Shown piece after piece: positions 39,316-43,005 of a stretch of 64,000 nucleotides of DNA. Source of the DNA: Staphylococcus phage RQ1; sequence record PV344601.1; one strand, written 5' to 3'. The position numbers and the translations under genes were made by a program. How positions within the stretch are numbered: the first letter of the stretch is position 1; every line of letters begins with the position of its first letter. Under the pieces are notes generated by a model that searched no databases, had not been told where the DNA came from, and was given only the letters and a program-made list of their open reading frames with translations.

Positions 39316-39347
39316 AAGGGGCTGTGCAAACCCCTTCTTCTTTTATT
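39316..39347 (+). terminator. second hairpin terminator between convergent transcription units
   Basis: aagggg-ctgtgcaaa-cccctt followed by cttcttttattt. Confidence 0.5.
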
Positions 39348-40323
39348 TAAACAAACTTTCTAATATCTCATCATCTTTGTTTTTTAAATAACTATTAGTT
39401 ATGTCTATATTTTCGTGCCGCATCAATATCTTTAATTCGCTTATTTCTAACTTGTCTCTTCCCATTTCAGATAGCGCATAATGAGTTCCATCTGTATAAC
39501 ACTCTGCTGCACTGTGGCGGAATACGTGAGGGAATATAGGCAAATCTTCATCATACTTGGCTTCTAGTATGCTTCTAAATGAAACTACCCAAGCATATAG
39601 TGTTTCGTATCTTAATGGTCTTGCCTCTTCATTGTAATAAGAAACCCATAAACTATCTATATCATCTTCTCCTCGCTCTTCTAACCATTTCTTTGCTATA
39701 TCTTTTGTTCTATTAGAGTACATAAGCCCAAACATTTTCGAACGTTTGCCCTTGACAACATTTGTCTTTGATAAAGACTCGTCCATGAAACTATATTTTT
39801 CTACTTGTATTACTTCGTTTCTTCTAGCTGTACTATCGTAAGATAAGCTAACATATAGAGCTTTTTGTGTCTTACCTTTTTCAAGTAGATAATTTATCAA
39901 GAAAGTTATTTGTTCGTCTGTTAGAAAGACAATTTCTCTAACAGGAGCCTTCTCTATTGATTTTATTTTTCTCATAGGGTTTGACTCATAATCTCCCCAA
40001 TCATCTTCATCATCTTCAGCAAATTGTAACAAGTTTCTGATTGATGACTGTACTCGATTTATTCTAGCAGGAGACTTTCCTGTTTCTGATAAATATAAGA
40101 AGAAATTTCTAAAATCTCTTCTCTTTAATTCAAGTATTGATTTATTATTGGCATTCTCATGAATATAACATAAGTACATACGGATATCAAACACATATTG
40201 TTCTATTGTTTTGGCTGCTCTTCCTTTTGCTTTGAGTTCTAGTATATAATCTTCCAATACTAGCTTTGATTCTTTATTTACTTTTTCATAAACCTCGTCA
40301 CTGTATAAATTATTTCTTTCCAT
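39343..40323 (-). CDS. tyrosine site-specific recombinase (XerD/Cre-like, no arm-binding domain)
   Basis: N-terminal SAM-like core-binding domain. TARRNE (Arg), HVFRHSAA (HxxR box II) and LMRHENIDITNSYL with the tyrosine nucleophile. Confidence 0.7.
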   Translation of the reverse strand: MERNNLYSDEVYEKVNKESKLVLEDYILELKAKGRAAKTIEQYVFDIRMYLCYIHENANNKSILELKRRDFRNFFLYLSETGKSPARINRVQSSIRNLLQFAEDDEDDWGDYESNPMRKIKSIEKAPVREIVFLTDEQITFLINYLLEKGKTQKALYVSLSYDSTARRNEVIQVEKYSFMDESLSKTNVVKGKRSKMFGLMYSNRTKDIAKKWLEERGEDDIDSLWVSYYNEEARPLRYETLYAWVVSFRSILEAKYDEDLPIFPHVFRHSAAECYTDGTHYALSEMGRDKLEISELKILMRHENIDITNSYLKNKDDEILESLFK

Positions 40324-40411
40324 TTTATTCTCTCCCTTGTTATTATGTATAGAGGGATTTCTCCCTCGTTATTATTAACCTAAACCGATTATAAACTTGT
40401 AATTTTATTAC

Positions 40412-42574
40412 TTATGTCGCTGTTACTTTTTTCCAACCTGTCCATACACCATTATATGCTGTGTTAACATATCTATCTGGAGAATTATAGGGCATATACT
40501 CTATTCTTTTCGCAGTAATACTAACTTTAGTTTCTACCCAACCCGATGCTGAAACTCCTGATGGTATACCTGTAGTATTAGTAGAATATATATCTAAACT
40601 TTCGTTTATTTCAAGTAGATTCAATCCATTATATCTAGGAGTTTGATTAGCAGTACCCCATGTATAATTTCCATTTCCGTCATACGTTAATATATATTTT
40701 TCAACTTTAGGGTTATTACTTTCGTAAGTAACAAAGAAAGTAAAACCGTTTAAATTCTCTATAACAACTTTCAAACCATTAGGTAGTAAGACATCATTAT
40801 AATCATTCACTTTAGTGTTAGATGAATAAAAAATAATTTTGTTTTGATAACTATCTGTCATATATTTTACAATATCTTTTATATTATTTAGTTTTTCACC
40901 AGTATATTCATTGTAAAGACTTCCACCGATATTAGATTTATATGGATTGTATTCTGATGTAGGAGCAATAAATGGTTGACCCATATTATCCATTGTAACA
41001 TCTTTATTAGTTGCACCATACTCTACTAATAAAACACCACCAGTATCTGAACCTATAGAACTTGCTTTTTTATATATTATCAAACAGAAAAGTTTATTTT
41101 TATAATTGAACGCACTTTCGTGTTCTATCATAGCAGGTTGTTTACCAATACTTTCAAGATATGCAAAAATGTCATGTGGCATATAAGTGTAGTCGCCAAC
41201 TATTGTTCCAGATGGTCCTAGTTGTTGAACTCCTTGCAAGTGATATATTTCCGTGTTAATATCTCTTTCTGGATTCCAATTTCCTCCTACAGTTTGATAT
41301 ATGTTGTTATTCATTAATACTAGTCCTTGTTTTTTTGTTGCTTTTTTCATAAGGTTATTAGGTTTATCTGAATATAATATGGCACTTGAAGGACTTACCG
41401 TTAAATAATTTTTCATAACACTAAAATCATCATTATAAAAAGTTATCATATCTCTTTTTAAAATACCTGATGTAGACATGTTTCTAGCTTCTATTCCCCA
41501 GCCTTCTCTTGTTCTGAAAAAGTTAGTATATAAAGATATTGAAAATTCTTTTTCTGGAGTTAATTGAACTGTTGTTTCATTGCCATTACTTAATTCGGTA
41601 ATATCAAATTTTCCAAGTTTTTCTGTTGTTGTTTTTGCATATAAATATCTTTTATTTCCTTCTCTTTCTACATGGATATTTTCTCCACCATGTAGACCAA
41701 CTCTATATTTAGTTACGTAGTTTCCTTGTCTGTCATATATCACTAAAACATGATTAGCAAGTTCAGAAGTATCATGTAATACATAAATATAATCATCGTC
41801 TAATGCAACACCCTGAGGAGTAAAATATGAAATTCCACTGATATTTTTTTCTGTGTCATACCCCTTAAATTTATAGGGCATATCTGCATGTATTTTTACA
41901 TCTCTATAATTTACCTGTGTGCTATCTTTGCCGTTTTCACCTTTTGGTCCTTGAATACCTTGCAATCCTCTATCGCCTTTGACACCTTGTATACCTTGTT
42001 CTCCTTGTATACCTTGTTCCCCTTTAGGTCCTTGTGGTCCTTTATACTTATCTGGGTTGCTTGCCACATAATTAACGATATCTTGATTAATTTTTTCTTT
42101 ATAATCTTCATCTAATAATCCCATAGCGTTATCAGTCATGACATTTCTAACAATGTCCTCTAATAACTCAACTTTTATTTCTTTTCCTACAGCACCTTCA
42201 ACACCACTGTCTTTAATATCAAATGTAAAATTAGCTACATGAACAGATTTAGTGTCATTTTTAAGAAATACTTTTGCTTTAACCTTACCAGCATGTCTTA
42301 TTACATCATCAGAAAAATTATATTGTATCAAACCTTGTTCTGGCATAACATTCATGAAATCTTTTATTTCAAATATAGAACCATCATCGTGAAATAAAAA
42401 TAATATTGGTTTTAAATCTATTTTTGTTAAATCTAAGTAATACCCTTGATTCGATAAACGTATTCTAATAGAAGCACTGCCTTTGTCTTCTGTATAGAAA
42501 TTGGTATAAACTCCACCTTTTTCGGTGTTTTGTTGTAAAGAAAACTCTAAATCCGTATTTTTGTTGATTGTCAT
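40412..42574 (-). CDS. tail fibre / receptor-binding protein with BppU-like N-terminal domain and collagen-like Gly-X-Y repeats
   Basis: N-terminus is paralogous to the 46594 ORF. 12 consecutive GXY triplets ([37 protein letters not shown]). Beta-rich C-terminus. Confidence 0.55.
41929..42043 (-). repeat. collagen-like triplet repeat coding region
   Basis: Direct DNA repeats ccttgtataccttgttc. GXY x12. Confidence 0.6.
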
Positions 42575-42585
42575 ATTTTTTCCTC

Positions 42586-43005
42586 CTATTTACTCTTTGT
42601 AAATACGTCATTATATTGGGTTTTATAAGATACTTCATAGCCACATATATTTTGATTGTCCATAAATAAGACCTTATTAGAATTTTGTATATCTATATTC
42701 TTTGATAGTTTTAAACAATCCTTTATTTGTTCTAGTTGGTGCGAACTATATTCTTCATTTGTAAATATTAAACTTTGTCCCTCAGTAAAGATTGTAACAC
42801 TCTTTATATTTCCGTTACTTTCTAGGTCATTGATAATATCTATTCCTTTCTTTAATAGGTCTTTGTCAAATTTTTCTCGCTCTTTTTTTATTCTCTGGAA
42901 CTCATCATTTACAACATTTTGCCTTGCGTATTCTAAATGCCAAAACCTCCCTGTTGTGATAAGGTGGTTCAGGAGGTCTATCATGTCATTTTTATTCAAA
43001 ATCAC
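42586..43005 (-). CDS. hypothetical protein
   Basis: 139-aa ORF. Confidence 0.35.
   Translation of the reverse strand: MILNKNDMIDLLNHLITTGRFWHLEYARQNVVNDEFQRIKKEREKFDKDLLKKGIDIINDLESNGNIKSVTIFTEGQSLIFTNEEYSSHQLEQIKDCLKLSKNIDIQNSNKVLFMDNQNICGYEVSYKTQYNDVFTKSK

Follow-up and report, generated by a model that had tools for sequence, protein, structure and literature searches.

We analysed a 64,000-nucleotide (nt) stretch of the genome of Staphylococcus phage RQ1 (PV344601.1; hereafter the window), whose late arm ends in a small open reading frame (ORF), a tail fibre gene, and a gene for a tyrosine recombinase. The recombinase is intact and arm-less, and it is a vertically inherited, ancestral core gene of its phage lineage, not one gained with the fibre; the small-ORF/fibre cassette and the recombinase are two unrelated things that lie side by side. 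The best explanation of our data is that the recombinase is neither an integrase nor a fibre invertase. We infer for its substrate and reaction that it would act late in infection on the phage's own circularized or multimeric replicating DNA, the most likely reaction, with a probability of about 0.4, being the Cre/Xer-like interconversion of monomeric and multimeric circular phage DNA. That the staphylococcal Cluster D phages carry an unexplained recombinase had already been noted (PMC6507118); what is new here is how broadly the family is distributed, that it has an orthologue on the plasmid pBS32, that it is expressed late, and that it is distinct from integrases.

Domain Organization and Fold of the Recombinase

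Pfam recognizes two domains in the recombinase: a SAM-like core-binding domain, Phage_int_SAM_1 (1.9e-9), at residues 24-103, and Phage_integrase (PF00589; 7.8e-10, with 39.2 bits and a cut-off of 27.1). Only 23 of the 326 residues precede the core-binding domain, too few to accommodate an arm-binding domain, and the structural matches cover the core-binding and catalytic domains only, in agreement with the original prediction of a short, Xer/Cre-like enzyme without an arm-binding domain. The catalytic residues are R167, K193, H266, R269, H303, and Y312, and all six are invariant both in a nine-sequence alignment reaching down to 38% identity and in a closer alignment of 30 sequences (homologues 38-97% identical).

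The AlphaFold (AF2) model (predicted local distance difference test score, pLDDT, 86.5) consists of two domains and matches archaeal XerA, Brujita Int, Tn1549 Int (82-397), IntI, Cre, lambda Int (75-356), and XerH in the PDB, with a Foldseek probability of 1.00 for XerA, Cre, the lambda Int core, and XerH. The best fold matches share 12-20% identity with the recombinase, and a search of the PDB sequences with the single protein gave no match, a profile being needed. Scores against NCBIfam were 73.4 bits for XerA (cut-off 220), 66.8 for XerC (335), and 47.6 for XerD (330), all under the cut-offs, and the protein is therefore Xer-like in build without being an orthologue of XerA, XerC, or XerD. 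Its two-domain, arm-less build and full catalytic set are those of the Cre/loxP (P1), XerS/difSL, XerH/difH, and XerA systems, whereas its identity to Cre and to the single-recombinase Xer proteins is 13-20% and no lox- or dif-like site was found in the window.

Distribution, Position, and Conservation

By tblastn, homologues of the recombinase were identified in 190 phage records. Identity to the window protein is 68-71%, over the full length, in the Cluster D phages or Sextaecviruses (6ec gp55, SEP9, SA2 ORF105; "pham 1333"), about 54% in Mammaliicoccus, Enterococcus (VPE25, 9183), and Leuconostoc phages, 44-47% in the Lactobacillus Tybeckvirinae, 36-38% in temperate phages of the Bacillus cereus group such as BtCS33, and 23-28% in SPbeta (yomM), Tsamsa, 949, and c-st. 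The genomes of the closest relatives are about 88-90 kb long; the loci compared here comprise 2-50 kb around the recombinase gene, plus the complete pBS32. PT1-4 is the nearest genome (in a 20-kb structural region, 42% of the length aligns at about 82% identity), and the window phage is a species distinct from its Cluster D/Sextaecvirus relatives.

The window is a low-GC (about 30%) segment of a staphylococcal siphophage, in which an early/replication arm (1-39240, plus strand) converges on a late arm (64000-39343, minus strand); the cumulative GC skew reaches its maximum at about 38-39 kb, beside the recombinase gene. The minus-strand order is holin, endolysin, a 285-nt spacer, a 139-amino acid (aa) ORF, the 720-aa fibre, an 88-nt spacer, and the 326-aa recombinase, so that the predicted succession of lysis genes, small ORF, BppU-type fibre, and recombinase was confirmed (table 1). 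In the loci inspected, the recombinase is likewise the last or last-but-one gene of the late arm, beside convergent early genes, and this terminal position is kept in 19 phages, whose hosts belong to five genera (Staphylococcus, Mammaliicoccus, Enterococcus, Leuconostoc, and Lactobacillus), as well as in pBS32. Among the members of this large lineage of Firmicutes siphophages are Sextaecvirus, the Andrewesvirinae of Enterococcus (such as VPE25), the Tybeckvirinae of Lactobacillus, one Leuconostoc phage, and pBS32. The Cluster D recombinase also stands at the end of the virion/lysis arm, in phages reported to be lytic and to have cohesive (cos) ends (PMC6507118). Horizontal acquisition of the whole module, as originally proposed, consequently has to be restricted to the small ORF and the fibre, which are absent in 6ec, F1, and VPE25; the recombinase was kept in all relatives examined, in the same terminal late slot.

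The ratio of nonsynonymous to synonymous substitution rates (dN/dS) for the recombinase is 0.076 between 6ec and a contig of a metagenome-assembled genome and 0.031 between PT1-4 and SA2, the remaining pairs being saturated at synonymous sites; these values indicate strongly purifying selection. In phage PMBT8, the recombinase gene carries an insert of about 270 nt just before the catalytic-lysine codon (L013 4028-4300), with the downstream exon in frame. Along its whole length, this insert can be aligned to the group I intron model, with a score of 40.9 bits that falls short of the gathering score (50) and an E value of 3e-9 when 381 nt were searched. The PMBT8 endolysin gene contains a clear group I intron (L013 1657-1916, 101 bits); unlike in PMBT8, both genes are uninterrupted in the window.

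Expression data are available for the VPE25 orthologue, orf_105, which is transcribed late: its z-scores in an RNA-seq table rise from -1.2 to +1.4, with the maximum at the last time point, where the adjoining lysin peaks too.

An Orthologue in the Phage-Plasmid pBS32

Among 72,556 plasmid records, recombinase homologues were found in 61 Bacillus plasmids (55% identity), one Pediococcus plasmid, and one Clostridium plasmid, and in no Staphylococcus or Enterococcus plasmid. The Bacillus matches include pBS32 of B. subtilis NCIB 3610, an 84-kb plasmid that is essentially a phage genome of the recombinase lineage and is listed as a phage-plasmid community. Its protein WP_020846125 ("site-specific integrase") is 55% identical to the window recombinase over 324 residues and closes a late arm colinear with that of the window (tape measure, Dit, tail spike, small genes, LysM lysin, recombinase); the convergent genes past it include those for a Rho_N-domain protein and a topoisomerase, as in phages 9183 and VPE25. 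In a comparison of all ORFs, 16-17 window genes had colinear homologues in pBS32, among them genes for ribonucleotide reductase (RNR), DnaB, primase, DnaE, guanylate kinase, and tail proteins. With 55% identity, the recombinase equals RNR (54-59%) and DnaE (46-52%) in conservation.

pBS32 differs from the window phage in being kept as a plasmid and in having RepN, AlfA/AlfB, and the sigma factor SigN. No ORF of the window, which covers 64 kb of a genome of roughly 88-90 kb judging from the closest relatives, matched RepN, AlfA, AlfB, or SigN at E<1e-5, and no partition or replication-initiator gene was found among the window ORFs scanned. The slot beside the recombinase, filled by the fibre in the window, holds an LXG toxin and an immunity gene in pBS32 (L022/L023 10836-12883), and L. 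plantarum phages have a small ORF 3' of the recombinase. The arm junction beside the recombinase seems to be a general cargo site. A described function of the recombinase was not found in the literature on VPE25, BtCS33, SEP9, and pBS32.

Evidence on Lysogeny

The Cluster D staphylococcal phages (6ec, SEP9, SA2) have 10-nt 3' cohesive ends and lack lysogeny functions (PMC6507118); because of these cos ends, cyclization by the recombinase would be unnecessary. Lysogens were not obtained with BE02 (PMC10117716) or phage 9183, nor detected by Southern blot for VPE25/VFW (PMC4999554). As predicted, the window encodes a replisome of its own in the early arm (a DnaB-like helicase, a split DnaE-type polymerase, RNR alpha and beta, a DHH/RecJ-like protein, and AAA_24), and no repressor was found among the window ORFs scanned.

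The best 120 homologue clusters of the recombinase are all on contigs of 91 kb or less. No intact integrated copy was detected by a pattern-based scan of 185,579 genomes (one per species), which returned only one 89.7-kb phage-like contig and one truncated fragment, and the scan of the species genomes with the single recombinase protein gave no match. The truncated fragment is an orphan of 232 aa in the Bacillus testis chromosome (L012 9992-10690), 59% identical to the N-terminal part of the recombinase and lacking the catalytic half; it sits among housekeeping genes, with no surrounding prophage. In the temperate phage BtCS33, the recombinase lies between a tail fibre and the holin, and a separate integrase is encoded beside helix-turn-helix (HTH) regulators. 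Because BtCS33 has this integrase of its own, the recombinase family is distinct from the integration function. What would be expected of a lambda-type integrase is missing here, since the arm-binding domain is absent and neither integrated copies, nor lysogens in these relatives, nor a repressor among the scanned ORFs were found.

The Small ORF and a Mosaic Fibre

The fibre belongs to the BppU type (BppU_N, PF10651, 1.1e-18, 67.7 bits against a cut-off of 23.1; Collagen, 4.9e-7) and is a mosaic, in which an N-terminus resembling the "Fiber Upper" protein (FibU) of phage 80α is joined to the C-terminus of a Herelleviridae tail protein. Residues 16-230 match 80α FibU gp68, a member of the BppU family (PDB 6v8i, E 1e-45), and the PT1-4 fibre shares 56% identity with residues 1-247; at the DNA level, similarity to PT1-4 and SA2 (79-86% identity) is confined to 42175-43284. 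Residues 223-719 match phrog_22693 (5e-199), at profile positions 435-936 only, and are 52-54% identical to the tail protein of vB_SscM-1, JDF86, and phiSA_BS1 (tblastn), which in SscM-1 is gp113, encoded after the tail lysins. This Herelleviridae homologue is annotated as a "glycerophosphoryl diester phosphodiesterase" (GDPD), a name that is not transferable to the fibre because the profile match is limited to positions 435-936 and Pfam finds no GDPD domain in the protein. Unlike the gene of 80α FibU, the window gene sits after the lysis cassette and encodes 500 distal residues from the Herelleviridae family.

Two details of the original prediction need amendment. The collagen-like run has 13 Gly-X-Y triplets, not 12, and of a "second BppU-type fibre" only the 720-aa protein itself qualifies: the upstream 512-aa protein (46594-48132; phrog_257, "minor tail protein") has no Pfam BppU_N match and shows a weak N-terminal similarity to the fibre (26% over 86 aa, pairwise E 0.004). 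The fibre probably adds or alters host-surface binding. The small ORF is 82% identical to its counterpart in PT1-4, 46% to that of SpP, and about 33% to ORF173 of the Kayvirus ISP; its homologues in Kayviruses occur at unrelated positions, and no match was found for it in Pfam or the PDB.

Small ORF and fibre together are found between lysin and recombinase only in the window, PT1-4, SA2, and a metagenomic contig (L027); they are an optional cassette that in this one subclade separates the recombinase from the lysis genes. The cassette is missing, unlike in the window, from 6ec and SEP9; the lysin abuts the recombinase in 6ec, F1, PMBT8, VPE25, 9183, and Ldl1, as does the holin in the Leuconostoc phage Lenus, and SpP has the fibre before the holin and the small ORF alone after the lysin. 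A second metagenomic contig (L026) encodes a recombinase protein identical to that of L027 and has lost the cassette, which is therefore dispensable. The deletion in L026 measures 2,544 bp, extends from inside the small ORF to near the end of the fibre gene, and has a 10-nt direct repeat, AAATTTGACA, at its junction; it was a microhomology deletion, not site-specific recombination. In the same contig, 710 nt that contain an ORF of 200 aa have been inserted after the endolysin. The fibre cassette would be an ordinary but clear case of receptor-binding modules moving between siphoviruses and myoviruses within one host genus.

Hairpin Elements and the Search for Recombination Sites

The window contains seven copies of an element in which TACATA(W) stands 0-4 nt after a GC-rich hairpin; a comparable hairpin occurs at 0.4% of random positions. 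Five of the seven bracket units, two of them after the endolysin, one between fibre and recombinase, and two after the recombinase (table 1). The pair after the endolysin is kept in PT1-4, SA2, and L027, and the pair at 39232-39337 forms, on the plus strand, canonical T-tailed terminators for the early arm. In 17 of the 19 phages, which represent five host genera, an equivalent element is located just 5' of the ribosome-binding site of the recombinase; the 15-kb loci of VPE25 and Lenus contain no other copy. About 330 kb of related loci (L001-L027) contain 43 distinct elements, at transcription-unit boundaries, with stems that vary between copies and a conserved box. On our reading, the element marks the boundaries of transcription units, as a variant terminator or as a site of processing, and the recombinase and the fibre unit would then be separately attenuated cistrons.

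Other interpretations of the element were tried and rejected. As a recombinase site, it is disfavoured as the main reading by its differing stems, by the copies at 8215(+), 62274(-), and in one Herelleviridae (myovirus) locus, by its absence from pBS32, unlike the window, and from BtCS33, and by the lack of a palindromic partner box. As a -35 box with a fixed -10 box, it has no conserved hexamer downstream. A sigma-70 scan found no enrichment (46 sites against 40 expected), and the motif string was met in the literature only in primer sequences. An attC-like role has a low probability.

Repeats were sought around the fibre and the recombinase. Exact inverted repeats in 38800-43400 are at most 12 nt long, below the mean maximum of 13.6 nt in shuffled sequences, and all 100 of 100 shuffles reach 12 nt; inverted repeats with mismatches around the fibre, and direct repeats there that might serve as excision sites, gave chance-level matches only. 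No dif-like site, and hence no mimic of the host dif, was found in the window at up to three mismatches from a Firmicutes dif consensus; a divergent site may lie elsewhere.

Possible Roles of the Recombinase

A lytic-cycle function on phage DNA is favoured because of the late expression of the gene, its retention in lytic phages, the presence of a true integrase alongside it, the cos ends, and the plasmid-borne orthologue. The recombinase would interconvert monomers and multimers before cos packaging, on the Cre/loxP or XerS/difSL model, resolving dimers or, conversely, building two-cos substrates, and in pBS32 the equivalent job would be to resolve plasmid multimers. Among the three options that the original prediction listed for the recombinase, resolution of concatemers or dimers is the best fit, although no site was found. 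The genes xerS and xerH lie beside dif at the terminus, and the location of the recombinase at the convergence of skew and transcription resembles, by analogy, this arrangement. The more general proposal, that a lytic Firmicutes siphophage lineage depends on a late site-specific recombinase to make its replication products packageable or resolved, and that the same enzyme keeps pBS32 monomeric, seems rather doubtful at present.

Several points weigh against the interconversion of monomers and multimers. No recombination site was identified, and the intergenic flanks of the recombinase in the 19 phages hold only the short hairpin elements, of which there are further copies at other places in the genome and in a myovirus, and none in pBS32. 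A cos phage with rolling-circle replication has no obvious need for a recombinase. The analogy with the plasmid may not carry over because the window has no homologue of RepN, AlfA, or SigN. SA2 has been called lysogenic from colonies that were PCR positive and phage insensitive after two restreaks (PMC6787349), although this evidence, obtained by PCR only, is weak. The puzzle itself is already in the literature, where the role of the Cluster D tyrosine recombinase is called "unclear" (PMC6507118). As for the neighbouring fibre, the proposed role in receptor binding is drawn from homology.

Two alternatives would give the recombinase a part in a dormant state of the phage. It could be a Cre-like multimer resolvase of an episome, if the phage had a low-copy plasmid or carrier state such as that of pBS32, in which a genome of the same lineage is kept as a plasmid with the orthologous recombinase in the same position; phage-plasmids commonly carry recombinases that resolve dimers and other multimers (PMC7969092), and the insensitive SA2 colonies positive for phage genes would fit. 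We consider this unlikely, as the window encodes none of the pBS32 maintenance proteins, no Staphylococcus or Enterococcus plasmid among the 72,556 records carries a homologue, and lysogens or carriers have not been reported for BE02, VPE25, or 9183. It could also be a plain arm-less integrase of the type found in mycobacteriophage Brujita, conferring rare chromosomal lysogeny at a simple att site. Arm-less integrases do work, as the Brujita system illustrates, Brujita Int is among the best structural matches, and both the SA2 claim and the truncated B. testis homologue might be taken in its favour. This is quite unlikely in view of the failed lysogen searches in three relatives, the lack of an intact integrated copy in the genomes scanned and of a repressor among the ORFs scanned, the separate integrase and repressor region of BtCS33, the placement of the VPE25 orthologue in a late operon and its late expression, and the state of the B. 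testis fragment itself.

The remaining alternatives concern the adjacent genes or deny the enzyme a present function. A decaying remnant of temperate ancestry, which the original prediction had entertained, would suit phages that behave as virulent and have no known site, but is very improbable for a gene kept across five host genera with invariant catalytic residues and dN/dS values of 0.03-0.08, and interrupted in PMBT8 by an intron-like element, not by frameshifts. Capture of cassettes (fibre, small ORFs, toxin genes) in the manner of an integron, with the hairpin elements as attC-like sites, would account for the variable slot beside the recombinase among close relatives and for the hairpins that bracket cassette units, and an integron integrase is among the structural matches. 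The chances of this explanation are slim, for the single cassette loss that could be resolved occurred by 10-nt microhomology in coding sequence away from the elements, and these differ freely in their stems, turn up at a distance from the recombinase as well as in a myovirus locus, and do not occur in pBS32. Finally, a shufflon-type (Rci) or other invertase switching the adjacent fibre gene, and with it the host range, has in its favour only the adjacency of the two genes in the window, PT1-4, and SA2. This proposal fails almost entirely: inverted repeats do not exceed chance, there are no alternative 3' fibre segments, and the recombinase has no adjacent fibre in most relatives (6ec, F1, PMBT8, VPE25, 9183, Ldl1, Lenus, and pBS32).

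Phages of this group have been proposed for therapy against staphylococci and enterococci, and a match to "integrase" routinely raises a safety flag. Since the recombinase is a conserved late core gene, common with pBS32 and distinct from the integrase of a temperate relative, the question shifts from lysogenization to the job of a site-specific recombinase in the lytic cycle. If a lineage-wide late recombinase were confirmed, it would define a new lytic-cycle role for tyrosine recombinases and a mechanistic bridge between virulent and plasmid lifestyles, and it would concern phages treated as strictly lytic, including Sextaecvirus and VPE25-like therapy candidates. VPE25 in E. faecalis and pBS32 in B. 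subtilis 3610 are tractable systems for the recombinase.

Other Features of the Window

Table 1. Coordinates of the recombinase, the fibre cassette, the lysis genes, and the hairpin elements in the 64,000-nt window
Feature	Position	Strand	Basis or remark
Two hairpin + TATACATA elements	39232-39337	-	Convergence point, 3' of recombinase
Arm-less Xer-like tyrosine recombinase, 326 aa, final late-arm gene	39343-40323	-	Pfam, fold, catalytic residues
Hairpin GAGGGA-GAAA-TCCCTC + TATACATA box	40344-40367	-	Fibre/recombinase gap, 20 nt 5' of recombinase start codon
Accessory mosaic tail/baseplate fibre, 720 aa	40412-42574	-	Pfam BppU_N, Collagen; PDB and tblastn matches
Distal domain, fibre aa 223-719	40418-41908	-	Herelleviridae tail-protein C-terminal half, without GDPD
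Collagen-like run, 13 Gly-X-Y triplets, fibre aa 179-217	41924-42040	-	Triplet count; 9/18-nt tandem periodicity
BppU_N/FibU-type anchoring domain, fibre aa 5-146	42137-42562	-	Pfam BppU_N 1.1e-18
Small ORF, 139 aa	42586-43005	-	phrog_3319 (unknown function); travels with fibre
Two tandem hairpin + TACATA boxes	43183-43280	-	Just past endolysin stop; divide lysis cassette from small-ORF/fibre unit
Endolysin	43291-44763	-	Pfam CHAP+Amidase_2+SH3_5
Lysis cassette (endolysin + holin), context	43291-45127	-	ORFs, Pfam
Holin	44738-45127	-	Pfam Phage_holin_1
Remaining hairpin elements	8197-8220 (+), 62274-62300 (-)	8215(+), 62274(-)	Far from recombinase

No Rfam family was found in the fibre-recombinase region or in the whole window, and the window contains no tRNA genes. 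The DnaE-type polymerase is encoded by two ORFs, 23777-25147 and 26340-28700 (+), unlike in pBS32, where DnaE is one unbroken 1280-aa gene; the roughly 1.2 kb between the two halves carries an endonuclease gene (25194-26006, phrog_4645), and Rfam detects no intron there at the gathering score. Free-standing genes resembling those of homing endonucleases are located at 37770-39011(+), 30465-31766(+), 11600-12268(+), and 21959-22672(+). The first of these (413 aa; phrog_4538/9084, HTH_7, GC 24%) adjoins the convergence point and is an insertion, present in L026 and not in PT1-4 or L027. A neighbouring "HTH_3" gene in L027, considered as a possible repressor, encodes instead a homing-endonuclease-like protein with three paralogues in the window.

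The baseplate module at 46040-51433(-), which includes the 512-aa minor tail protein and an 871-aa Peptidase_G2/pectate-lyase-like protein, has about 82% DNA identity to 42-kb staphylococcal siphoviruses (IME1354_01, O1-69), a match which shows that modules have been exchanged with another family of phages. At 43223-43251(+), inside the conserved intergenic block that the window shares with PT1-4 and SA2, lies a near-consensus sigma-70 promoter (TTGACA-17-TATATT, 11/12, with a TG extension), which is directed antisense into the endolysin gene.

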